DNA of 64,000 bases. It comes from Patescibacteria group bacterium. Lineage in GTDB: Bacteria > Patescibacteriota > Minisyncoccia > Phycocordibacterales > Phycocordibacteraceae. Of this stretch, positions 4,110 through 59,362 are shown piece by piece (the first letter of the stretch is position 1; the number at the start of each line of letters is the position of its first letter). The notes beneath the pieces were generated by a model that was not told the DNA's origin, searched no databases, and saw only the letters and a program-made list of their open reading frames with translations. The stretch spans positions 52,570 through 116,569 of the forward strand of contig JAZKAU010000002.1 in NCBI GenBank assembly GCA_040388985.1, in the 5' to 3' direction. Made by a program: the position numbers and the translations under genes.

Positions 4110-4916
4110 ATGCTAAGCGACCTATTCAAAGAACTGGGGCTTTCCGAAAGTGCTCACCGCATATATCTCTGGCTGCTTGAAAATGGCACGTCCACGGCTC
4201 GCACGCTTGCCGAGAACCTTGGTCTTCCCCGCCCTTCCGTATATGACCATCTGAACGCGCTCATCCAGAAGGGTCTCGTGCTCGAGCGCGAGGAAGGCCA
4301 TACGAAAACGTTCCAGATAGACGACGTGAAGAATCTTCCGCGACTTCTCGAGGAACGCATGGACGCACTTAGCGAAGAGAAAGCTGCGCTCGAGGTCCTC
4401 CTCCCGCAACTGCAGAAGCAGACCGCATCGGTCGAACCGAAGATACGCTTCTTTTCCGGAGCAGAAGGCGTACGCCAGGTGCTGAATGACATCATGTGGT
4501 ACGAGAATATCGAGACGATGAGCATGTGGCCCATTCGTGAGATGGTCGATCTCCTTGGAAAGGAGTATTTCGAAAAATTAAATCGCAAGCGCATCCCGCG
4601 CGGCATCTTCATACGAGCCGTCTGGCCGGAGAACAAGCGTGTTCCCTTCAAGGACTATCCGTTTCTGGGCACCGGAACCGGCCACTTGCGTGATCTTCGC
4701 ATCGGCCCTAAGGGTATGAGCTTTGATATGGGGTACTGGATATACGCCGACAAGGTCGCCTTCCTGTCGTCGCGCAAAGAGACATTCGGCTTCACTATTC
4801 ATAGCAAGGACTTCGCGGTGATGCTGAAGTCGCAATTCGAGGTCGTATGGGCTGCGTCAAAGCCGGTTAAGCCTGAGCCGCAGCATACCGACGCCTTTCT
4901 CGAGACGGTCAGATAG
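4110..4916 (+). CDS. TrmB-family HTH transcriptional regulator (paralog 1 of 9)
   Basis: N-terminal LGLSESAHRIYLWLLENGTSTARTLAENLGLPRPSVYDHLNALIQKGLV is a TrmB-type winged HTH. C-terminal domain is shared with 8 other ORFs in the window (e.g. conserved ...FEVVWAAS tail). Confidence 0.7.
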   Translation: MLSDLFKELGLSESAHRIYLWLLENGTSTARTLAENLGLPRPSVYDHLNALIQKGLVLEREEGHTKTFQIDDVKNLPRLLEERMDALSEEKAALEVLLPQLQKQTASVEPKIRFFSGAEGVRQVLNDIMWYENIETMSMWPIREMVDLLGKEYFEKLNRKRIPRGIFIRAVWPENKRVPFKDYPFLGTGTGHLRDLRIGPKGMSFDMGYWIYADKVAFLSSRKETFGFTIHSKDFAVMLKSQFEVVWAASKPVKPEPQHTDAFLETVR

Positions 4917-4924
4917 ATTTATCT

Positions 4925-4999
4925 TGGGGCGGCTAGAGAGAATCGAACTCTCGATGCGAGTACCACAAACTCGAGTTTTACCACTAAACTATAGCCGCC
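4925..4999 (-). tRNA. tRNA-His (GTG)
   Basis: Hand-folded cloverleaf. G-1 then acceptor GCGGCTA/TAGCCGC, anticodon stem CGAGT/ACTCG, loop TTGTGGT (anticodon GTG), T-arm GAGAG-TTCGATT-CTCTC, discriminator C, encoded CCA. Confidence 0.85.
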
Positions 5000-5478
5000 A
5001 TGAATGTTTTCCGCTCGCCCTCGTAATGGTGTACCAGAAAATGGCAGTTATGACAAAGCCACGCCAGATTTTCAAGCTTATTATTCTTACGATTCTTGTC
5101 GATATGATGCACCGCGAGTATGCGTTTATCTATAGTTTTACAAAGTCCACACACTTGAGGGAGGTTTGCTCGATTCATGACAGCACGATAGCTACTTTGT
5201 CCGGTCGTAAAATTTTTGTGCCTTTCTGCGACGTATAGTTGGTTTCTCCAACATGTCTGGCAGCTCTTGCTGCAGAAGAACTTCCCGCTCTTGGAACGTC
5301 TAAGATCCTTATTTTGCTTATATGAAATCCTCCCGCATATATCACAGGGCATATTCTTTCCCGTGGGTCTTGCTGTCTTATAACAGGCTACGCTGCAATA
5401 CTTTCCGTTACCCTGCTTAAGTGCAGAAGGCTTGCTGTAAAAGCTAGTCGTGCACACATTACAGGGAACGATCGGCAT
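4984..5478 (-). CDS. HNH endonuclease with N-terminal Cys-rich zinc-ribbon repeats
   Basis: Several CxxC pairs (CNVC, CSVAC, CDIC, CSKSC) then HNH motif HHIDKNRKNNKLENLAWLCHNCH. Last 5 codons (MAAIV-stop) overlap the 5' end of tRNA-His. Confidence 0.8.
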   Translation of the reverse strand: MPIVPCNVCTTSFYSKPSALKQGNGKYCSVACYKTARPTGKNMPCDICGRISYKQNKDLRRSKSGKFFCSKSCQTCWRNQLYVAERHKNFTTGQSSYRAVMNRANLPQVCGLCKTIDKRILAVHHIDKNRKNNKLENLAWLCHNCHFLVHHYEGERKTFMAAIV

Positions 5479-5589: not shown

Positions 5590-5700
5590 CTCCTGGGCTA
5601 CACCGAGGGCTTTCTCCTTACAGGAGCTGTATACCTTTGGGGTTTTCTCACCGAATAGAAATTCGGCTCATAAACATCGCAAAGGTCTTCAAGTCCTCTC
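5590..5700. repeat. R-element copy 1: ~110-bp repeat containing antisense pseudo-tRNA-Leu 3' fragment
   Basis: ~90% identical to 7770-7880. Plus strand carries CGCAAAGGTCTTCAAGTCCTCTCCCGTGCTACC, resembling the 3' half of tRNA-Leu (GCAAGGCGTGGAGGTTCAAGTCCTCTCCTGGGCACC) but on the opposite strand to the adjacent real tRNA. Contains hairpins CTCCTTACAGGAG and CCGAATAGAAATTCGG. Confidence 0.5.
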
Positions 5701-5718
5701 CCGTGCTACCAAGCGATA

Positions 5719-5753: not shown

Positions 5754-5838
5754 TGGTGCCCAGGAGAGGACTTGAACCTCCACGCCTTGCGGCACATCCA
5801 CCTCAAGGATGCTTGTCTACCAATTTCAACACCTGGGC
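5754..5838 (-). tRNA. tRNA-Leu (GAG)
   Basis: Type II tRNA. Acceptor GCCCAGG/CCTGGGC, anticodon stem CATCC/GGATG, loop TTGAGGT (GAG), long variable arm, T-arm GGAGG-TTCAAGT-CCTCT, encoded CCA. Confidence 0.85.
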
Positions 5839-7512: not shown

Positions 7513-7559
7513 TATGGATAGAGACGGAGGATTCGAAAGCCGCAGGCGCGCGACCAGAA

Positions 7560-7720
7560 TTTCTTGAGCGAAGCGATTAGAAATTCGAAGTGCCCTTGTG
7601 GTGAAGCCCTTTCGAGTCCGCGAGGGCTGTTGCCGACGCGGGCGTAGATTTTGTTACGAGCTTGCGAGTTAGAAAATCAAGTGCAGAGCTTCGAGAGTGC
7701 GTGACAGAATCCGAATACTT
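7560..7720. repeat. degenerate tandem repeat related to the internal segment of MITE copies B/C
   Basis: GAATTTCTTGAGCGAAGCGATTAGAAATTCGAAGTGCCC and GATTTTGTTACGAGCTTGCGAGTTAGAAAATCAAGTGCAG resemble TAATTTCTTACGAGTAATCGAGTTAGAAATTAGGAAGTGCCC of copy B. No TIRs. Confidence 0.3.
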
Positions 7721-7769
7721 GGAGGAGTATGTCCGCAACTCGTGACCGAATCCGACTCCTTCATTTGTG

Positions 7770-7880
7770 CCCGGGAGGACTTTCTCCTTACAGGAGCTGT
7801 ACACCTTTGCGGTTTTCTCGCCGAATAGGAATTCGGCTCACAAACATCGCAAAGGTCTTCAAGTCCTCTCTCGCAAAGCG
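7770..7880. repeat. R-element copy 2 (antisense pseudo-tRNA-Leu 3' fragment repeat)
   Basis: CTTTCTCCTTACAGGAGCTGTACACCTTTGCGGTTTTCTCGCCGAATAGGAATTCGGCTCACAAACATCGCAAAGGTCTTCAAGTCCTCTC is ~90% identical to 5590-5700. Confidence 0.5.
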
Positions 7881-7895
7881 CGCAGGCGCTTCACT

Positions 7896-7945
7896 CCGGG
7901 CACAAATGAAAAAGCGCTTGTGAGCGCTTTTTCATTTGTGCCCGG
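7896..7945 (-). terminator. 22-bp perfect inverted repeat / terminator overlapping 3' end of tRNA-Leu(CAG)
   Basis: CCGGGCACAAATGAAAAAGCGC-TTGTGA-GCGCTTTTTCATTTGTGCCCGG. Core GCGC...GCGC hairpin plus U-run downstream of the tRNA on the minus strand. Confidence 0.5.
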
Positions 7946-8022
7946 GAGAGGACTTGAACCTCCACGCCCTTGCGAGCTCTACGACCTGAACGTAGCGTGT
8001 CTACCAATTTCACCACCCGGGC
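7939..8022 (-). tRNA. tRNA-Leu (CAG)
   Basis: Type II tRNA. Acceptor GCCCGGG/CCCGGGC, anticodon stem CTACG/CGTAG, loop TTCAGGT (CAG), T-arm GGAGG-TTCAAGT-CCTCT. CCA not encoded. Confidence 0.85.
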
Positions 8023-20605: not shown

Positions 20606-21700
20606 ATGCAAAACACTATAAAAATCGTCGCGGTCCTCGTCGTTCTCGCGCTTATCGCCTTCGGGATTTCGCTGATCTCGCGGCCGAAGAGCGACACGAC
20701 CGTGGTCCTTGGCGCCACCCTACCCCTCACCGGAGACCTAGCCTTTCTGGGCGAGGGATATAGAAACGGAATGAACTTGGCGCTTTCGGAGCTCGGAGAT
20801 ACGAAATTCAAGTATAAGATCGTATTCGAAGACGATAAGTTCGATCCTGCGACCGGTGCTACGACGGCAAATAAGCTCATCTCTGTCGACCATGCTGACG
20901 GACTATTCTCGTTCGGCTCTCCGGTCGGCAACGTCGTCAGTCCGTTAGCCCAGAAGAACAACATTGTACATATAAACGGTATAGCCTCTGATCAGAACGT
21001 TGCCAAAGGAGACTACAACTTCGTCCACTGGACTCCGCCCTACGAGGAGTCGAAGCTCCTCATCTCGGAGCTGCAGAAACGAGGCATCAGTCGCGTTGCC
21101 ATATTCGTGACGAATCAGCCAGGCGCACTCGCAGTGGCAGACCAGGTAAGCACTGACCTGAAAACGAGCGGCATCCAGTTAGTAGGATACGAGACCATCA
21201 ATCCTGGAGAGACTGATATGCGGTCGCACGTAGCTAAGGTTGCTGGTTCGAAGCCGGACATGTACATACTCTTGTCCATGTCCCCTGAGCTCGAGATACT
21301 TACGAAACAGATCAAGGAGCAGGGCATAACGACGCCGCTTACCTCTATCGAGTCCTTCGAGTGGACCACGCAGCCGCAGATGTTTGAGGGCATGTGGTAT
21401 ATAAATGCTGCCGATCCGTCTCCTGCATTCGTGGAGAAATATAAAACTGCATACGGACAGAGCCCGACCGTGGGAGCCGCCAACGGCTATGATGCCGTGA
21501 TGCTCTTCGTTCACGCAGTCGAAACGTCAGCACAAGGGACGGGTAAGCCCAGCGAGGAAGACATAAAGAATGCTCTTCTGAATGTTCGGGACTATAGCGG
21601 CGCGGTCGGTGAACATCTCTCAGTCGACCGGGACGGGCTAATTGTATCTAAGGCAGTAGTGCGAATCATCAAGGACGGCAAGCCCGTTACGGTGAAGTAA
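20606..21700 (+). CDS. ABC transporter substrate-binding protein, LivK type (SBP 5)
   Basis: MQNTIKIVAVLVVLALIAFG signal/TM. LGATLPLTGDLAFLG motif. Start set to ATG 20606 (ORF track starts at 20510). Confidence 0.75.
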   Translation: MQNTIKIVAVLVVLALIAFGISLISRPKSDTTVVLGATLPLTGDLAFLGEGYRNGMNLALSELGDTKFKYKIVFEDDKFDPATGATTANKLISVDHADGLFSFGSPVGNVVSPLAQKNNIVHINGIASDQNVAKGDYNFVHWTPPYEESKLLISELQKRGISRVAIFVTNQPGALAVADQVSTDLKTSGIQLVGYETINPGETDMRSHVAKVAGSKPDMYILLSMSPELEILTKQIKEQGITTPLTSIESFEWTTQPQMFEGMWYINAADPSPAFVEKYKTAYGQSPTVGAANGYDAVMLFVHAVETSAQGTGKPSEEDIKNALLNVRDYSGAVGEHLSVDRDGLIVSKAVVRIIKDGKPVTVK

Positions 21701-21771
21701 GTTCAGGGGAGAAGGCCTGACAAAAGCGAAACGCCCGCGAAGCGGGCGTTTCGCTTTTGTCAGGAGATGAC

Positions 21772-28737: not shown

Positions 28738-29262
28738 TTGAATGGGGTTCTGGGAGGAGTGCGTGAGTGGTATAATAGGTTAGTGACTGAAAAATACCGA
28801 CGGAATGCAAATACCGCATGCAGGACCTGTCTGAAGCCAATTTATCGAAGACCATCTGAGGTAAAGTCTGGGAAGGTTTTCTGTAGTTCATTGTGCTACG
28901 GAGCGGCAAACCGCAAAGAGAAACCCTGCGTTATTTGTGGGAAACTTATTCTTGCTAGAGCAAATAAGAAGACTTGCAGCCGAGAGTGTGCTAATCGAAA
29001 CCGAGCAGGAATCAAGTACAAGATTGGGCGGCCGCGTGATAAGTCTAATACGATACGCACGATCAAGCTGCATCTCATCAATGAGCGCGGATCGGAATGT
29101 GAACGTTGCGGATACGACAAGCGAGAGATACTACACGTTCATCACAAAGACCGAGATCGCTCGAACAATGAGGTGTCGAATCTTGAGCTCATCTGTCCGA
29201 ATTGCCACTATGAGGAGCATTATCTGGAAAAAAGCTGGCTTGATGGTAGACTGACCTCCTAA
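28738..29262 (+). CDS. HNH endonuclease with N-terminal Cys-rich zinc-ribbon repeats (paralog of 4984-5478)
   Basis: CRTCL...CSSLCY, CVICG...CSREC then HVHHKDRDRSNNEVSNLELICPNCH HNH motif. Ends 4 nt before tRNA-Ser. Confidence 0.8.
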   Translation: MNGVLGGVREWYNRLVTEKYRRNANTACRTCLKPIYRRPSEVKSGKVFCSSLCYGAANRKEKPCVICGKLILARANKKTCSRECANRNRAGIKYKIGRPRDKSNTIRTIKLHLINERGSECERCGYDKREILHVHHKDRDRSNNEVSNLELICPNCHYEEHYLEKSWLDGRLTS

Positions 29263-34324: not shown

Positions 34325-34334
34325 CCGGCATAAA

Positions 34335-34378
34335 AGAGAAAACCGCCGGCCCCTAGGGGCCGGCGGTTTTCTCTTTAC
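34335..34378. terminator. bidirectional terminator (tRNA-Arg(CCG) / rpsT)
   Basis: AGAGAAAACCGCCGGCCCC-TAG-GGGCCGGCGGTTTTCTCT is a 19-bp near-perfect palindrome with U-runs on both strands. Overlaps the rpsT stop codon. Confidence 0.6.
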
Positions 34379-35328: not shown

Positions 35329-36597
35329 ATGTATCGACTCATCAACATCGTCGTCGGTATCCTGAAATCCATACTTCCGGACTGGCTCGTCCGTCCGCTT
35401 CTTCCCTTCTATCACCGGGTCCTGGCCTTCCTCCTCGCCTTTTCCTACGGTTTCCCAGCGCGCGGACTCACGGTCATCGGCGTCACCGGCACCAAGGGGA
35501 AATCATCTGTGTCCGACATGCTTTTCACCGTCCTGCGTCATGCGGGATATGCAGCGGCGGTCGCAGGCACGATACGATTCGCGATCAACGACGAATCGGA
35601 ACCGAACCTCTATAAGATGACGATGCCGGGTCGCGGCTTCATCCACTCCTTCCTGGCGCGCGCGCGGAAGGCGCACTGCACGCATGCGGTCGTAGAGATT
35701 ACGAGCGAGAGCGTTCGCCAATATCGCCATACGTACCTATATCTCAACGCCCTCATCTTCACGAATCTCCAGAAAGAGCATATCGAGTCTCACGGCTCTT
35801 TCGAGAATTATGCAGCGGCTAAGCTTGAGATAGGCAAGGAGCTCGCACGCTCGCCCAAACGTCCGCGCGCGATCATTGCAAACGCAGACAACCCGCATAG
35901 CGGTCCCTTCCTCGCGCTTCCCGTAGAGGATGTTCGTCCCTTCTCATATGGCGAGGCGAGGGACGTGAAGCTCGGTCCGGGCGCAGCGACGTTTACGTAC
36001 GAGAGCGTACCCTTCAGCCTCCACTTGCCGGGCAGCTTCAGCATCATGAATGCGCTGGCTGTAATAAAGGCTGCGCAATTCGTGGGAGTGCCGCTTCCGA
36101 CCATCAGCGATGCGCTCGCGCAGCTCAAGCGCATCCCCGGACGCACTGAGCGCATCGATGAAGGTCAGGACTTCCAGGCGATAGTTGACTACGCCCATAC
36201 GCCCGATTCCCTTTCCGCGCTCTACGAAGCGTATCCGGTCCGGAAGATATGCGTGCTCGGTAACACCGGTGGCGGGCGCGACACGTGGAAGCGGCCGGAG
36301 ATGGGTACGATCGCGGACGAGTCCTGCGACGAGGTCATCCTTACGAACGAAGACCCATATGACGAGGACCCTCGCGCGATTCTGGACGCCATGGCCGCCG
36401 GCATGAAGCGGACTCCGCGCATCATCATGGACAGGCGCGAAGCCATCGCGGCCGCGCTCGCGCTCGCGCGTCCGGGCGACGCCGTACTTATCACCGGCAA
36501 GGGTACCGATCCGTACATAATGGAAGCGAATGGCAAGAAGACGCCCTGGAGCGACGCTCGGGTAGTATCTGAAGAACTGAAAAAGCTGGGGATCTAG
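35329..36597 (+). CDS. Mur ligase family protein (MurE/MurT-like; exact specificity unclear)
   Basis: ATP-binding P-loop IGVTGTKGKSS typical of Mur ligases. N-terminal TM-like segment. Start set to ATG 35329 after the ruvA stop. Confidence 0.55.
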   Translation: MYRLINIVVGILKSILPDWLVRPLLPFYHRVLAFLLAFSYGFPARGLTVIGVTGTKGKSSVSDMLFTVLRHAGYAAAVAGTIRFAINDESEPNLYKMTMPGRGFIHSFLARARKAHCTHAVVEITSESVRQYRHTYLYLNALIFTNLQKEHIESHGSFENYAAAKLEIGKELARSPKRPRAIIANADNPHSGPFLALPVEDVRPFSYGEARDVKLGPGAATFTYESVPFSLHLPGSFSIMNALAVIKAAQFVGVPLPTISDALAQLKRIPGRTERIDEGQDFQAIVDYAHTPDSLSALYEAYPVRKICVLGNTGGGRDTWKRPEMGTIADESCDEVILTNEDPYDEDPRAILDAMAAGMKRTPRIIMDRREAIAAALALARPGDAVLITGKGTDPYIMEANGKKTPWSDARVVSEELKKLGI

Positions 36598-36741
36598 ACC
36601 GTATCTATAAAAGCTTCGGATGCGAGGCGCGGGTAGACGAAGAATGCAGGCGTACTGAACGTACGACGGAGTGATGAGTCGGGACCCGCAACAAAGCAGA
36701 TGAGGTTTTTAGACACGGTCTAGGGCTGGTACTATGGCAAT

Positions 36742-37677
36742 ATGAAAAGCGACTTCGTCCTCTTCTTAGCGATCCTCATCTTCATATTCGTCCTCTGGCT
36801 CTACACGGGCGGGCCTACGCACCCGATATCCTTCGCAGGACCTTATCTCACACCCGTCACGACTAGCGGTGGACAGTCGCAAGCATACGGAAACCCGAGC
36901 GACCTCTCAGGCGGCTCGTTCCTGCATAGCCTGTCGAGCGGGTTCGGTAAAAGCGGAAGCCTCGGCGGAGATACGAGCGGAAGCTCGAATATCTCCTCTG
37001 TCCCTGCAGGCGATCAGTCGCCTTATGCGGGCAAGGTACATATAAACGGGGGCGATCCTTCCGCCACCTCAGTGCGACAGGAGTATCTTGCGCTCCAGTC
37101 AGCGTCGGGTTCCGGGAATATCAATATCACTGGCTGGCAGTTGGTGAGCACGCAGTCGGGAGCGCAGGCTGTGATACGTGCAGGCGAACGTATACCGGAC
37201 GTGAGCAGCGAAAGTTCCATCGTCCTCAATCCGGGAGACGAAGCTATTGTCACGACCGGACAGTCCCCCTATCGCAGCACGTCTTTTAAGGAGAATAAGT
37301 GCACCGGCTATCTTGATTCGAGTTCATACTCTCCGTCACTCTCGACGAGCAACTGCCCGGCTCCCATAGACGAGCTCGGGGACTTCTACTCTGGGAACGC
37401 TAATCATTATGACGACTGTGCCGACTATGTACGGACCCTTTCGAGCTGCCGAGTACCGGGTACCTCGCCCCAAGGCACGCCTTCATTCTGCAGGGACTTC
37501 GTCCGGGATCGCCTCGACTATTCCGGCTGCGTAGACGGACACAAAAACGATGCTGACTTCGTCGGCGACACGTGGCGCATCTACCTCGACGAGAACAAGC
37601 AGCTTTGGCGCAGCGACAACGATACTATCCGGCTGCTTGATCAGAACGGGAAGGTGGTAGACCAGTACTCGTATTAG
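36742..37677 (+). CDS. hypothetical secreted protein, Gly/Ser-rich N-terminal region and Cys-rich C-terminal domain
   Basis: N-terminal TM/signal MKSDFVLFLAILIFIFVLWLYTG. C-terminus has at least 8 Cys residues. Confidence 0.45.
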   Translation: MKSDFVLFLAILIFIFVLWLYTGGPTHPISFAGPYLTPVTTSGGQSQAYGNPSDLSGGSFLHSLSSGFGKSGSLGGDTSGSSNISSVPAGDQSPYAGKVHINGGDPSATSVRQEYLALQSASGSGNINITGWQLVSTQSGAQAVIRAGERIPDVSSESSIVLNPGDEAIVTTGQSPYRSTSFKENKCTGYLDSSSYSPSLSTSNCPAPIDELGDFYSGNANHYDDCADYVRTLSSCRVPGTSPQGTPSFCRDFVRDRLDYSGCVDGHKNDADFVGDTWRIYLDENKQLWRSDNDTIRLLDQNGKVVDQYSY

Positions 37678-38507
37678 ATCTGGTAGGAATCAATGGCACG
37701 AGCAAGTAAGTCCCGCTTCTCGACGTGTTCTTTCCAGATACTATTAGATCGATTTCCGTTTACTCGCACACCGGGGGAGAAGTTGATTTCCTTTTGAAAT
37801 TTCAATAGTTCACTTTTTCCTGTTATAAGGACTTCATTTGGAAGAACGATATGTGCGTTGATATCTAGATCTGCGAGAAGTGACTGAACGATTGATAAAA
37901 TACGTATATTTTTCTGATATCCGCGCACCCTTCTTTTATTACGTGCTGGTCTAAAGTCCATGCAGCCCTCGTCATCGAAAAATGCTCTGAGGAATTCGCG
38001 TTTGCATTCTCTTGGCATTCTCTCTATTTCTTCCAGGAGTTCCTCAGCCTTCTTGAGAAGATAGGTGCCGAGAGCGACATTATTATATCCGATCTTAGTT
38101 ACCCCTGTGATGGGATTTACATATAGTTTTGGATCAAAGTCATATATACCTTTCATGAGAGTCCTTACTCGCTGTATGAGAGCTCCGCTTCGATTATTGT
38201 ATCTGCAGCCGCTTGAACTAAGCTCTCCGTCGAATATGAGATGGGCGACTAGTAGTACTAGCTGGGGACTCCAAGTACTAAATTCCTTGAACATTCGGAC
38301 ACTCTTTCCTTTTCTACTTAACGCAAATTCGCGCATTCTGTCTCCTGCTCTCTGCCGAATCGAATCTTTTCTCTCTGCTGACAGCGGCAAATCGCGTATA
38401 TACGAATATACTGTTGTTTTTGGACCTCCTGTGCGCTCAACTATTTCGGATAATGTATATCCTTCTTTCCTCAGCGCTACGCACACTTCTCTCAACGTAG
38501 TCTCCAT
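37674..38507 (-). CDS. LAGLIDADG-family homing endonuclease (two motifs) with N-terminal HTH
   Basis: Motif 1 LVAHLIFDGELSSS and motif 2 LRAFFDDEGCMD (LAGLIDADG-like xxFxDxEG). N-terminal TLREVCVALRKEGYTLSEIVERTG HTH. Start ATG (rc 38505-38507) lies 2 nt downstream of the tRNA-Lys 3' end. Confidence 0.6.
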   Translation of the reverse strand: METTLREVCVALRKEGYTLSEIVERTGGPKTTVYSYIRDLPLSAERKDSIRQRAGDRMREFALSRKGKSVRMFKEFSTWSPQLVLLVAHLIFDGELSSSGCRYNNRSGALIQRVRTLMKGIYDFDPKLYVNPITGVTKIGYNNVALGTYLLKKAEELLEEIERMPRECKREFLRAFFDDEGCMDFRPARNKRRVRGYQKNIRILSIVQSLLADLDINAHIVLPNEVLITGKSELLKFQKEINFSPGVRVNGNRSNSIWKEHVEKRDLLARAIDSYQI

Positions 38508-38508
38508 G

Positions 38509-38581
38509 TGCGCCCGGATGGGCTCGAACCATCGACCCACTGCTTAAAAGGCAGTTGCTCTACCGACTGAGCTACGGGCGC
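38509..38581 (-). tRNA. tRNA-Lys (TTT)
   Basis: Acceptor GCGCCCG/CGGGCGC, D-arm GCTC-AGTCGGTA-GAGC, anticodon stem ACTGC/GCAGT, loop CTTTTAA (TTT), T-arm GATGG-TTCGAGC-CCATC. Confidence 0.85.
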
Positions 38582-44520: not shown

Positions 44521-44643
44521 GAGGTTTCTGAAAAACCCGATATGCAAGGCGCTGAGGAGTGAAAGACCGAGTCGTACTCAGGCGTACGGTGAGGTCTTGA
44601 GCGACGAGAGTAACGCAGCAGATCGGGGAATTTCAGGAAGCTC
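44521..44643. mobile_element. MITE-like element copy D (minus orientation, short 123-bp variant of copy A)
   Basis: rc reads GAGCTTCCTGAAATTCCCCGATCTGCTGCGTT...AGTACGACTCGGTCTTTCAC...CGCCTTGCATATCGGGTTTTTCAGAAACCTC. Both TIRs present. Confidence 0.5.
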
Positions 44644-44649
44644 TGCGGC

Positions 44650-46344
44650 GTGGGGTATGATAGGGACTATATGCCGAGCCATTTCGACACTGACGCCGAG
44701 GACGCGAAGCTCGCCTACGTGCGTGCGGAAGAGGAGGAGGACCTGACGCGCATCCTCTCGGACAAATACGGCATCACGTATACCGACCTTTCCGTCGTAC
44801 CTATAAATATGGACGCGCTGCGCGTCATCGGCGAAGCTGAAGCTAAGGACGCACAGGCCATCGCCTTCGATAAGAACGGAAAGCACCTCTCCGTGGCGTT
44901 GCGTGACCCGAAGAGCGATACTTATACGCGGCTGCGTGCGCGCCTCACGGACGCGGGCTACATCCTCGAAGAATTCCTCGTCTCCGAAGCGGGCATCACC
45001 CGCGGCATCTCCCGCTATGCCGATCTCTCGCAGGCGCATGGCGACGATGCGGGCGTCTTTGCCATCTCCGAAGACGACGTGAAGACCCTCGGGCCCAAAC
45101 TCTCTACAGTGGCGCTCCTGCGTGACTATCTGACCGAGGCCATCTCCACCAAGCATCCCTCCCAGATATCAACCCTTCTCGAAGACATCCTCGTGGCAGC
45201 GCTCACGATGAAAGCTTCCGACATCCATTTCGAGCCGGGTGAGGACGGCACGCGCCTGCGCCTGCGGCTCGACGGCATATTGACCGATACCTTCCTCTTT
45301 AACGAACACTCGTACCGTCTTCTGAGCTCCCGCATCAAGCTTCTCTCGGGACTCAAGCTTAATATCAGCGACCGGGCCCAGGACGGCCGTTTCAGTATCG
45401 GCATCGGCGCGATCGAAGTTGAGATCCGAACATCCTCCATTCCCGGCAACTATGGCGAGTCCATCGTGCTGCGCGTCCTTGATCCGAACGCAACTACCCA
45501 TTCCTTCACCGACATGGGCATCCATCCGAAGCTCTTGAAGCGACTCGAAGCTGAGATACGCCGCCCTACCGGAATGCTGCTCACCACCGGCCCTACTGGA
45601 AGCGGTAAGACCACGACGCTCTATGCCTTCATGCGCGCGATTCATACGCCGGAGATAAAGATAGTGACCATCGAGGACCCGGTCGAGTACCACCTGCCAG
45701 GCATCGTGCAGACCCAAGTAAATGGCGAAGACTACACCTTCGCTTCGGGACTCCGTTCCGTGCTGCGTCAGGACCCGGACGTCATCATGGTGGGCGAGAT
45801 CCGTGACGGTGAAGTCGCAGAAGTCGCCATCCAGGCGGCGCTCACCGGACACTTCGTCTTCTCTACTCTTCACACTAATAACGCTGCGGGCGCTTTCCCG
45901 CGCCTCGCAGATCTCGGCATAGATCCTAAGTCCTTCGCCTCAGCCGTTACGGTCGCTATGGCACAGCGTCTCGTGCGCACCCTTGACCCCGCAACTCGCG
46001 TAAAGCGCGCGGCCACTGACGAAGAGAAGAAAATCATGCAACGTATCTTCGAAGGCCTCTCCGATCCATCGCTCATGCCAGCGTCCTTCGACGAAGTCTG
46101 GAGCGCTGCTACGGGCGAGGACAGCGATACCGGCTACAAGGGCCGCACAGGGCTTGTCGAGGCTATATTCATGGACGAAGAGCTCGGCGAATTCCTGCGC
46201 GACAATCCGTCATCAAGCGATATTGCTAAGCATGTGGAGCGCCAAGGCTATCTCACTATGGCGCAGGATGGCGTTACCAAGGCACTCTCTGGCATCACCT
46301 CGCTCGAAGAAGTCTTCAAGGTCATCGACCTTCCGCGAGATTAA
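44650..46344 (+). CDS. type II/IV secretion system ATPase (PilB/GspE family)
   Basis: Walker A TGPTGSGKTTTLYA; Asp box, Walker B VIMVGEIRD. His box not seen. 564 aa. Confidence 0.8.
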   Translation: MGYDRDYMPSHFDTDAEDAKLAYVRAEEEEDLTRILSDKYGITYTDLSVVPINMDALRVIGEAEAKDAQAIAFDKNGKHLSVALRDPKSDTYTRLRARLTDAGYILEEFLVSEAGITRGISRYADLSQAHGDDAGVFAISEDDVKTLGPKLSTVALLRDYLTEAISTKHPSQISTLLEDILVAALTMKASDIHFEPGEDGTRLRLRLDGILTDTFLFNEHSYRLLSSRIKLLSGLKLNISDRAQDGRFSIGIGAIEVEIRTSSIPGNYGESIVLRVLDPNATTHSFTDMGIHPKLLKRLEAEIRRPTGMLLTTGPTGSGKTTTLYAFMRAIHTPEIKIVTIEDPVEYHLPGIVQTQVNGEDYTFASGLRSVLRQDPDVIMVGEIRDGEVAEVAIQAALTGHFVFSTLHTNNAAGAFPRLADLGIDPKSFASAVTVAMAQRLVRTLDPATRVKRAATDEEKKIMQRIFEGLSDPSLMPASFDEVWSAATGEDSDTGYKGRTGLVEAIFMDEELGEFLRDNPSSSDIAKHVERQGYLTMAQDGVTKALSGITSLEEVFKVIDLPRD

Positions 46345-46351
46345 GACCTTT

Positions 46352-46397
46352 TAGAGAAATGCAAAACCGCCTTTTGGGGCGGTTTTGCATTTCTCTA
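46352..46397 (+). terminator. long hairpin after PilB-like gene
   Basis: TAGAGAAATGCAAAACCGCC-TTTTGG-GGCGGTTTTGCATTTCTCTA, 20-bp stem. No clear trailing U-tract. Confidence 0.4.
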
Positions 46398-46705
46398 AAA
46401 TATTCGCGAACACTACCCTCCAGGCACTCCTCCTTATGAATAAGCAGGTGGACACAGTGCCTGAGGAGGCTCCCAGTTGCCTGCATCGAGTGCAGGACCA
46501 GAAGATCCTTGGGAAAGTGTCCTGAAGCCGTCAAGCCTTGCCTAGAGGGTGGTACTAACGAATATCAAGAATATGAAACCGATGGCAAAGAAAAAACCTC
46601 CCGAAGAAGGTGCGATTACGGGGCCGACCCCCATAGACACGCTCGTTTGTTATACGTTTACCGTACCAAACCTGGTGTGATAGAATACTAGCATACCCGT
46701 ATTTT

Positions 46706-49435: not shown

Positions 49436-50221
49436 ATGGAAAAGACATCTCAAAAACTGAAGGAGTCGCTTACTTCTCTAGGACTATCTCAGAAGGAAGC
49501 GGCCATCTATATTGCTCTCTTGGAGCTTGGTAGATCGACCGTATCGCAAATCTCGCGGAAGGCGGCCGTGAACCGCGCGACCGGCTATGTCATCCTCGAT
49601 TCCCTTATCACTAAAGGGCTCGTCAGTATCTCCGGCAAGGAGCCGAAGCAGGAATATGTCGCAGAGTCTCCCGATAAGCTGCCTGAGTTTTTCAGGAACG
49701 AGCAGAAAGAAGCTCGAGAGAAGGAGGAGAAGGCACAGGAGCTCTCGCTTCAGCTGAAGTCGATACAGAAGGTCGGTGATCGGCCGCAAGTACGTTTTTA
49801 CGAGGGAGAGGAAGGGATAAAGGCCGTCTTCGAGGATTCCCTGACTGCGACGTCAGGAAAGATAATTGCTTTCACCTCTATAGAGGACCAGCATACGTCT
49901 ATTCCAAACTACTTCCCCGAATACTACCAGCGCCGCAAGAGGAAGAAGATATTCATGCGGTCGATATTTCCCGACACGCCCATGGGTATCGAGAGACAGG
50001 GAGCGAACGAGAGCGAGTATCGCGAGTCAGTCCTCGTTCCCAGAGAGATGTACGGCATCCACCCTGCTATAAACGTATACGACAACAAGCTTATGATCGC
50101 TTCCTTTCGCGAAAAGCTCGGTATCCTCGTGGAAAGCGCCGAGATCGCGGACGCGATGAAGAAGATATTCGAACTCGCGTGGATCGGCGCGCATTCCCTG
50201 GAAACACAAAAAGAAACATGA
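49436..50221 (+). CDS. TrmB-family HTH transcriptional regulator (paralog 9)
   Basis: LGLSQKEAAIYIALLELGRSTVSQISRKAAVNRATGYVILDSLITKGLV. C-terminus MKKIFELAWIGA is closest to paralog 7. Confidence 0.7.
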   Translation: MEKTSQKLKESLTSLGLSQKEAAIYIALLELGRSTVSQISRKAAVNRATGYVILDSLITKGLVSISGKEPKQEYVAESPDKLPEFFRNEQKEAREKEEKAQELSLQLKSIQKVGDRPQVRFYEGEEGIKAVFEDSLTATSGKIIAFTSIEDQHTSIPNYFPEYYQRRKRKKIFMRSIFPDTPMGIERQGANESEYRESVLVPREMYGIHPAINVYDNKLMIASFREKLGILVESAEIADAMKKIFELAWIGAHSLETQKET

Positions 50222-51484: not shown

Positions 51485-51624
51485 GATCGCTGGTTTCCTG
51501 ATCTGCTTTGAGCCGTCTAGGTGTCACCTAGACAGCTGCTATCCACACGAACGTTATCCACTACTTGCAAAGAAATACGATTCTGTTCAAATAGGAGGGC
51601 TACGCGGAATTCCGCGGCATAACG

Positions 51625-51800
51625 AGCTTCCTGAAATTCCCCGGTCTGCTGTGTTGTCGCTGCTTCGAAATTCTCACGTACGCCCCTAATTTCTTACGAG
51701 TAATCGAGTTAGAAATTAGGAAGTGCCCTTGGGGTGCGCCTTAGTACGCCTGGGAATTTCTCATTGCTCCGCCTTGCATCTCGGGTTTTTCAGAAACCTC
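51625..51800. mobile_element. MITE-like element copy B (plus orientation)
   Basis: 5' TIR GAGCTTCCTGAAATTCCCCGG; 3' end CTCGGGTTTTTCAGAAACCTC (rc GAGGTTTCTGAAAAACCCGAG; 15/21 identical to the 5' TIR). Internal segment is shared with inverted copy C. Confidence 0.55.
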
Positions 51801-51823
51801 TATAATAAGTAATTGCGACCATA

Positions 51824-51985
51824 ATGACTGACGACGACCTGCTCGACGAAGATGCGCTTGATGACAAGGGTCTTCCGCTCGACCTCTCAGACGAGGACGG
51901 AGAGTCCGGAATCCTCGACGACGAGGAAGAGGATCCGCTCGCTATCCCTGAAGGGATGCACGAGATCGAAGATGATGGATTCTAA
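51824..51985 (+). CDS. hypothetical 53-aa highly acidic protein
   Basis: Hand translation gives MTDDDLLDEDALDDKGLPLDLSDEDGESGILDDEEEDPLAIPEGMHEIEDDGF. TATAAT at 51801-51806. Hairpin GAACGCCCG-CCTCC-CGGGCGTTC downstream (52014-52038). Confidence 0.3.
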   Translation: MTDDDLLDEDALDDKGLPLDLSDEDGESGILDDEEEDPLAIPEGMHEIEDDGF

Positions 51986-59141: not shown

Positions 59142-59183
59142 CCGTAGGGTGTCGCCACCTCACATTCCCTTCGACCAGCAGCT

Positions 59184-59362
59184 AAGCCTGTTGAAAAACC
59201 CGAGATGCAAGGCGGAGCAATGAGAAATTCCCAGGCGTACTAAGGCGCACCCCAAGGGCACTTCCTAATTTCTAACTCGATTACTCGTAAGAAATTAGGG
59301 GCGTACGTGAGAATTTCGAAGCAGCGACAACACAGCAGGTCGGGGAATTTCAGCAGGCTTAG
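59184..59362. mobile_element. MITE-like element copy C (minus orientation; inverted relative to copy B)
   Basis: Plus strand reads ...CTGTTGAAAAACCCGAGATGCAAGGCGGAGCAATGAGAAATTCCCAGGCGTACTAAGGCGCACCCCAAGGGCACTTCCTAATTTCTAACTCGATTACTCGTAAGAAATTAGGGGCGTACGTGAGAATTTCGAAGCAGCGACAACACAGCAGGTCGGGGAATTTCAGCAGGCTT, the reverse complement of copy B. Confidence 0.55.

Follow-up and report, generated by a model that had tools for sequence, protein, structure and literature searches.

The window analysed here is a 64-kb stretch of DNA from a Patescibacteria/Paceibacterota genome. Its genes are those of an ordinary chromosome (polA, pilB, ruvABC, murE, the PBP1 gene, dnaN, dnaA, yidC and nine tRNA genes). 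Its RuvC and MurE proteins are identical to proteins filed at NCBI under "Patescibacteria group bacterium", and their nearest relatives, with 74–84% identity, are labelled Paceibacterota or Parcubacteria. Genomes of the Patescibacteria (CPR) are tiny and streamlined, and to our knowledge few mobile elements have been reported from them. The locus of interest, located between ruvC and the PBP1 gene, is occupied by a short non-coding repeat (here copy C, 51624–51800 on the plus strand after refinement of its ends). It lies in the 5' leader of the operon formed by a 53-aa acidic ORF and PBP1, and the ATG at 51824 follows 23 nt later.

The interval between ruvC and PBP1 (51545–51985) contains further features of its own. 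They are a promoter-like box with the sequence TTGCAA-N17-CAAATA, a small hairpin in the 5' leader and an extremely acidic ORF of 53–62 aa. Six relatives (contigs L024, L025, L026, L029, L030 and L031) share the box and the ORF with the window. The leader hairpin was seen in the window and in five of the six relatives, the sequence of its stem varying between genomes while the pairing is kept.

Several other features of the window were recorded. A segment of 99 nt is repeated at 93% identity (5605–5703 and 7775–7873), each copy just 3' of a minus-strand tRNA-Leu gene (5754–5838 and 7938–8022, respectively). Within the segment there are several hairpins, and the 3' end of tRNA-Leu is present in inverted form. 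It has no match in Rfam and may represent either a structured RNA that was duplicated together with the tRNA gene to which it is linked, or a relic resembling a tRNA. Homing-endonuclease-like ORFs adjoin tRNA genes at 4984–5478 (-), 28738–29262 (+) and 37674–38540 (-); two of them are of the HNH type, beside tRNA-His and tRNA-Ser, and the third is a LAGLIDADG protein with an HTH domain which overlaps tRNA-Lys (38508–38581). Two expanded gene families (4110–26113 and 49436–50221) are found alongside genes for branched-chain amino-acid ABC transporters: at least eight paralogs of TrmB-family regulators (seven at 9.5–26 kb and one at 49436, probably with more at 4110 and 18775), and at least three, probably six, paralogs of Peripla_BP_6 binding proteins.

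Copies of the repeat and their neighbourhoods

An earlier note on this DNA had described the repeat as a family of four copies. All four were found in the places given there, and their sequences can be aligned. A search of the whole window, with filters off, by a covariance model built from the four sequences freed of a nested module (M2, see below) retrieved copies A to D and a fifth, diverged copy that had been missed (copy E), which matched over its full length with 36.3 bits (E = 8e-7), compared to 138 (137.6) bits for copy B. The conserved 5' block CTGAAATTCCCCGnnCTGCTG and 3' block GCCTTGCATnTCGGGTTTTTCA occur exactly four times each in the window, with an expectation of 0.00 from shuffled sequences. 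The sequences CTGAAATTCCCCGACCTGCTG (5') and GCCTTGCATCTCGGGTTTTTCA (3') also gave four matches each when up to three mismatches were allowed, always as pairs on one strand and 120–180 bp apart. The family is thus known from five copies in one 64-kb window. All five are intergenic, and their density is about one copy per 13 kb.

Copy A (320–495, +) consists of the base element and an M2 module (401–454) on the 3' side of the central hairpin. Its arms are of type I (AAGCCTTC...GGAGGCTC), and it is situated between divergent genes, 40 nt upstream of the ATG of the ZIP transporter gene at position 535. It had been proposed that this copy overlaps the 5' end of the ZIP gene; the overlap exists only for a TTG-extended version of the ORF (469–1272), while the start at 535 given by a public contig (L028) lies downstream of the element. 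Copy B (44521–44643, -) is the minimal element of 123 nt without M2, has type-II arms (GAGCTTCC...GAAACCTC) and is likewise flanked by divergent genes; the -10 box of pilB (TATGAT) follows about 10 nt downstream of it. The pilB gene is apparently leaderless, the TATGAT box being found 9 nt before the ATG, and this arrangement is conserved in the window (44655–44673) and in two relatives (L026, around 300–321; L036, around 21250–21275). The insertion of copy B falls where the -35 element of pilB would be.

Copy C, the one initially flagged, has type-II arms and carries M2 (51685–51736) in its apical loop, flanked by CGCC on both sides. Copy D (-) extends from 59185 to 59359, or from 59183 to 59361 when the flanking TA on each side is included, and occupies the spacer between the convergent genes for yidC and a 418-aa protein. 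Its arms are of type I, though its interior is 98.8% identical to that of copy C. The newly found copy E (-) measures 124 nt (36597–36720; 36595–36722 with the flanking TA), has no M2 and lies in the spacer between murE and an LTD gene. Its type-III arms form 15 base pairs.

In agreement with the description of the repeats as non-coding, six-frame translations of the copies had no homolog among 5.8 billion proteins. A protein search with the concatenated six-frame translations of the element, looking for spurious ORFs over other copies, returned nothing.

Anatomy, folding and mosaic structure of the copies

The base element measures about 122 nt and copy B represents its plain form. Once M2 was removed, copies A to D aligned over 121–123 nt (123 columns) with a mean identity of 85%. 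The greater length of copies A, C and D is due to the nested 52-nt M2 module, which is present in all three. The family had been assigned a size range of 123–180 bp (123–179 nt as measured here), and this spread comes from M2. The presence of terminal inverted repeats was confirmed, as the ends of each copy are imperfect reverse complements over about 21 nt. These arms consist of a helix P1 of 13–15 bp and a helix P2 of 5–6 bp, with 90.9% of the alignment cells paired. Positions 9–29 of the arms are near-invariant in copies A to D, and conservation is lowest in the outer 8 nt.

Over its full length the element forms a rod-like palindrome with a central GTAC/GTAC hairpin. In the consensus fold, the terminal stem of 13–15 bp is accompanied by a CCCCGR/UCGGG stem that lies between an A-run and a U-run. 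Two short stems (UGC/GCA and GYG/CGC), one helix that varies and an apical hairpin that is conserved (CGUAC/GUACG) make up the remainder. RNA folding, which had been suggested as a check on the elements, gave long rod-like hairpins for five of five copies, with z-scores of -3.4 to -6.2 against shuffled sequences. The antisense strand folded more stably in all five cases; as the copies share ancestry, this was not counted as evidence.

M2 is a module of about 52 nt made up of CACCMCAAGGGYACTTC and, after it, a hairpin of 8–10 bp. Its place in copies C and D is the apical loop, between the two CGCC motifs, whereas in copy A it lies in the opposite orientation on the 3' side of the central hairpin. 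A solo M2 (CACCACAAGGGCACTTC followed by the hairpin) was found outside any base element at 7551–7603 (-). The conserved 17-mer of M2 occurs four times in the window, with 0.03 occurrences expected. M2 may be a separate tiny mobile hairpin. A second M2-like hairpin is present at about 7650–7675, and both it and the solo M2 are located inside a 75-aa ORF (7577–7804, -) which has no Pfam hit.

The arms covary. In an alignment of the arms only, the paired fraction given above was accompanied by changes on both sides in 7 of 11 pairs, a result reached by 0 of 500 shuffles, and controls in which the arms were slid against each other paired at 28–48%. Most of this signal derives from copy E, and it is weaker among copies A to D. 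Selection for a functional hairpin, in RNA or in single-stranded DNA, would explain such covariation, and the double changes that are also seen in helix P5 and in the M2 hairpin point in the same direction, as does bcr1 of Bacillus, where compensatory changes of the same kind keep the stem (PMC3184786). The arm signal is non-discriminating and is not proof of selection on RNA, because the two ends of any transposon covary when they are bound by one transposase. The 5' arms of copies B and C, moreover, would pair better with the 3' arm of copy A than with their own.

Comparison of the copies revealed that they are mosaics. Between copies C and D, 8 of 21 terminal positions are different but no more than 2 of 156 in the interior (Fisher p = 4e-7); the interiors are 98.8% identical over 162 bp. 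Copies B and C, conversely, have identical arms and an interior identity of only 30/57. The division into subfamilies A/D and B/C proposed in the earlier note thus holds for the outer ~8 nt of the arms, while the interiors group C with D and, loosely, A with B. Even for the arms, the type-I grouping rests mainly on the 5' side, because copy D matches copy A at 7 of 8 positions there, compared to 5 of 8 in the 3' arm. Each type of arm is found with each type of interior, so that all four combinations are represented, and this implies recombination or gene conversion between copies. Variable tips and mosaic copies are features that a simple MITE does not predict.

These same features would be accommodated if the family were not a conventional MITE, defined by the tips that a transposase reads, but an element defined by its structure and built of recombining modules, in which the rod hairpin is kept, the tips covary, the interiors are swapped and M2 is mobile, and which would spread in a hairpin-dependent manner and be retained as a portable terminator or regulator. 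This possibility is considered improbable. If it were true, Patescibacteria would harbour small mobile structural elements of a new kind.

Filled and empty sites, target flanks and homology searches

The sites of four copies were compared with orthologous sites in related genomes, represented by Paceibacteria contigs L024–L026, L029–L031, L034 and L036, which belong to other species with 74–84% protein identity. At site B, the region upstream of pilB spans 75 bp in L026 and 215 bp in the window. At site C, the distance from ruvC to the small acidic ORF is about 80–116 bp in five relatives (L024, L025, L026, L029 and L031) and 340 bp in the window. Here the alignment with the relatives covers a conserved promoter-like box and a small hairpin to the left of the insert and resumes to its right with the start of the ORF. 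At site D, the spacer between the convergent yidC and 418-aa genes is 23 bp long in L025 and 218 bp in the window. At site E, murE and the LTD gene are separated by 20 bp in L034, 36 bp in L036 and 144 bp in the window. The flanks of this last site align up to the edge of the element: L034 reads TAG|ACGGCTGGTA without any element, so that TAG-AC-GGCTGGTA in L034 corresponds to TAG-element-GGCTGGTA in the window.

Since the orthologous sites are empty in related genomes, copies B, C, D and E are insertions and not conserved genes. From the comparison of these sequences, insertion appears to have occurred after the split from the known relatives, which amounts to a gain in this lineage and does not imply current activity. 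The outer arms are absent from the empty sites and must have arrived with the element rather than having been supplied by the target. An origin of the outer arms as target-derived palindromes was rejected on the same grounds, no such palindrome being found in the empty sites of the relatives. Two short-read (Logan) contigs of the same organism (L007 and L027) break inside or at the element, as expected of a dispersed repeat.

The filled and empty sites also bear on the idea that the copies are inert remnants, that is, old segmental duplications or relics of a dead IS with neither recent mobility nor function. The heterogeneous termini, the strong divergence of copy E seen in its covariance score and the failure to find a parent element are compatible with it. 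The near-identity of the C and D interiors, though, speaks for copying or conversion in recent times, none of the relatives compared has an element at these sites, and the hairpins are near-perfect even in the diverged copy E with its terminal stem of 15 bp. Inert remnants are accordingly considered highly improbable.

The sequences directly beside the copies were inspected for target-site duplications. Copy E, which begins with GACCG and ends with CGGTC, is framed as ...ATC-TA-element-TA-GGGC, and copy D (AGCCTG...CAGGCT) as ...CTC-TA-element-TA-GCTG. In both cases, removal of the element and of one TA restores CTAG. Judging from these flanks, copies D and E look like insertions into CTAG with duplication of TA, the signature of IS630/Tc1-mariner elements. 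IS630-family elements insert at TA and duplicate it (PMC2170065), and a preference of IS630 for CTAG is documented there and in its reference to Tenzen & Ohtsubo 1991 (PMC2170065). In the window, the stop codon TAG of murE is made of the duplicated TA and the first base of copy E, and the stop codon TAA of the 418-aa gene of the duplicated TA and the first base of copy D; the stop codon is rebuilt because the element begins with a purine.

The remaining copies are less regular. In copy C a TA abuts the 3' end and the 5' TA is 2 nt away, in copy A the TAs are found 4 nt and 2 nt from the ends, and copy B is flanked by CA on both sides, without TA. The boundaries of these three copies, and hence their target duplications, are uncertain by 1–4 nt. 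TA adjoins 5 of the 10 element ends (binomial P = 4e-5), a value to be read with the reservation that the boundaries were chosen after viewing the sequences and that TA is self-complementary. CTAG occurs 64 times in the window where base composition predicts 245, a deficit of about fourfold, and contains 2.2% of the TA dinucleotides of the window; given this share, our own binomial estimate for at least two CTAG targets among five by chance is about 0.005. The search for target-site duplications thus yielded a clean TA within CTAG in copies D and E, but no pattern consistent over all five copies.

The form of the element and its flanks were further weighed against transposition through a single-stranded, folded intermediate of the REPIN/RAYT or IS200/IS605 (PATE) type, in which a Y1 HUH transposase reads the folded element and not a sequence at its ends. 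A long imperfect palindrome covering the whole element, as in REPINs (PMC3116915), would suit such a route, and so would tips whose sequence is free to vary while pairing is kept, a copy B without TA duplication and strands that differ in folding stability. REPINs and IS200/IS605 elements, however, duplicate no target, whereas copies D and E show the 2-bp TA duplication within CTAG. No conserved 5' target tetranucleotide was seen beside the copies and no Y1 transposase among the scanned ORFs of the window, and an element of ~122 nt with conserved 21-nt arms is unlike the REP units of 20–40 nt. This route is regarded as very unlikely.

A parent IS with the same terminal inverted repeats and a transposase gene, proposed as a target of search in the earlier note, was not found within the 64-kb window: among the ~55 window ORFs scanned there was no transposase, integrase or reverse transcriptase. 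Look-ups of window proteins did not lead to further copies, as they returned only short contigs from within the same 64 kb. No family member above noise was detected by blastn or by the covariance model with filters off in about 150 kb of contigs from the relatives, and blastn against plasmid and phage collections gave no match to the element. An exact scan for the conserved blocks in 185,579 species genomes (GTDB, one per species), JGI metagenomes and viral contigs returned only matches that are attributed to chance: they were isolated, had no partner block nearby or fell within genes for proteins.

The alternative that the copies are parts of a structured RNA gene was examined with Rfam. At gathering score only tRNAs were matched in the window, and at E<=10 the surroundings of copies C and B gave only chance hairpin matches (JPX_1 with 11 bits, mir-3140 with 21 bits), so this candidate was discarded. 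In view of the absence of matches in Rfam, in the relatives and in the genome, metagenome, viral, plasmid and phage collections, the family is new and, as far as seen, lineage-restricted. A literature search pairing MITEs with Patescibacteria produced no relevant paper, and the phylum is absent from the main text of a large prokaryotic MITE survey from 2024 (PMC11602168).

Interpretation as a MITE-like family and relation to known repeats

Taken together, the family probably represents a lineage-specific group of non-autonomous, MITE-like DNA transposons in a Patescibacteria/Paceibacterota genome. The copies have several of the properties by which MITEs are recognised, namely a small size (about 50–800 bp in MITEs), inverted ends (at least 10–15 bp), multiple dispersed intergenic copies and filled versus empty sites. 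The MITE reading of the earlier note is therefore retained for the small, non-coding, dispersed elements with inverted ends and empty orthologous sites, with the qualification that clean target duplications, which span 2–10 bp in MITEs, are confined to two of the five copies and that no autonomous element or transposase with matching ends was seen among the scanned ORFs of the window. Two further observations count against it: the outermost 8 nt, usually the best conserved part of transposon ends, are the most variable here, and the near-identical interiors of copies C and D with their different ends were not made by simple transposition. On this reading it is an orphan MITE-like family, of a familiar kind but not described before.

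In the scenario that fits these data, a TA-targeting DDE transposase, presumably of the IS630/Tc1-mariner type and encoded elsewhere or lost, would have acted in trans. Its binding sites would be the conserved blocks at positions 9–29 of the two arms, and its targets would be TA sites, with a preference for those in CTAG, the TA being duplicated upon insertion. Surviving insertions would be those at intergenic TA sites, in promoter regions, in a 5' leader and twice at the TA of a stop codon. After insertion, the copies would have exchanged segments by gene conversion, giving rise to mosaics, and would have picked up the second tiny hairpin module, M2. In the transcript of a copy, a long hairpin would form in which a U-run comes after the GC stem; it would probably act as an incidental terminator, attenuator or RNase target.

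The last point leads to the main rival, a structure-selected regulatory hairpin. Here the element itself would be functional, for example as a portable bidirectional terminator, an attenuator or a target of RNase III/E, roles of the kind suggested for SPRITE or bcr1. Besides the covariation discussed above, the GC stem with its A-run and U-run is in favour of it, as it mimics the long palindromic terminators of the genome itself, where hits of the covariance model were weak. Perfect palindromes of 22–23 bp with A-runs and T-runs were observed at the 3' ends of genes or tRNAs (7896–7945, 21716–21764, 34333–34376 and 46349–46400); presumably they are bidirectional intrinsic terminators. Because of this resemblance, and because copies D and E directly follow stop codons, a putative effect of the element on termination or RNA stability is plausible. 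Copy C, on the other hand, is located in a 5' leader, where a terminator would be costly or even harmful. The orientation to transcription is also inconsistent: copies A, B and D have divergent or convergent genes as neighbours, and of the two copies between co-directional genes, C is in sense and E in antisense. A test for orientation bias was uninformative for this reason.

Donation of promoters or terminators was considered as well and not retained, simple scans having flagged nothing inside the elements and the -35-like matches at the junctions, found by eye, being weak. The element is absent from all relatives examined (~150 kb), so no conserved function is evident, it has no match in Rfam, and a selected hairpin leaves the spread of the copies and their TA/CTAG flanks unexplained. 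Selection for a functional hairpin is thus judged unlikely, and insertion by a transposase acting in trans remains the preferred reading.

The closest parallels to a MITE-like family of this build are found among the small repeats of other bacteria. The Correia elements of Neisseria (NEMIS) duplicate TA. They are orphan MITEs of 100–155 bp with inverted ends of ~26 bp, in which, as in the present family, an A/T run is followed by a GC-rich stretch, and they too exist in long and short forms that differ by an internal segment of ~50 bp (PMC10969869, PMC5039591). Like the present copies they are intergenic and give long RNA hairpins, which in the case of Correia are cut by RNase III, and no cognate transposase is known for either family (PMC10969869, PMC5039591). 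Homology was tested and rejected, a degenerate consensus of the published ends (PMC5039591) having no match in the window with up to three mismatches. The host phylum is another one, and variable outer tips and mosaic copies distinguish the present family.

MITEs derived from IS630/Tc1-mariner elements resemble copies D and E in the TA target, the 2-bp duplication and the CTAG preference, and the family in its simple inverted ends and short core (PMC2170065). Unlike in these MITEs, three of the five copies have no clean TA..TA, the tips are not conserved, and neither an IS630-type transposase nor a full-length element with these ends was seen in the window. The bcr1 repeats of the Bacillus cereus group and the ERIC repeats of enterobacteria are transcribed and palindromic, measure ~127–155 bp and have a distribution which is not conserved between relatives (PMC3184786, PMC10969869); in ERIC, internal insertions produce longer variants (PMC10969869). 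There is no sequence relation to either, and bcr1 has direct repeats of 5 bp.

The BOX, RUP and SPRITE repeats of Streptococcus pneumoniae are modular and insert into one another, comparable to the nesting of M2, and SPRITE has a terminator-like hairpin which recalls the GC stem and U-run at the ends of the element (PMC10969869). Their sequences and hosts are unrelated, and the present family consists of a single scaffold with one kind of nested module. REPINs, which are REP doublets mobilised by RAYT, are likewise long hairpin-forming intergenic repeats with maintained pairing (PMC3116915), but they lack a target duplication and are made of short REP units with a conserved tetranucleotide, and no RAYT gene was seen in the window. 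More generally, the nesting of small elements and long RNA hairpins are classic traits of bacterial MITEs (PMC10969869, PMC3184786).

The mosaic copies with their covarying tips offer a small and clean case for asking how hairpin structure on one side and recognition by a transposase on the other constrain the ends of MITEs. The elements also break short-read assemblies of this lineage and are a possible marker for strain typing. With about one copy per 13 kb, the window suggests that CPR genomes can host a burst of small mobile DNA. Such a burst would reshape intergenic regulation, given that copies are placed at promoter regions, in a 5' leader and at stop codons of housekeeping genes (pilB, murE, yidC and the PBP1 operon), where they may influence expression.
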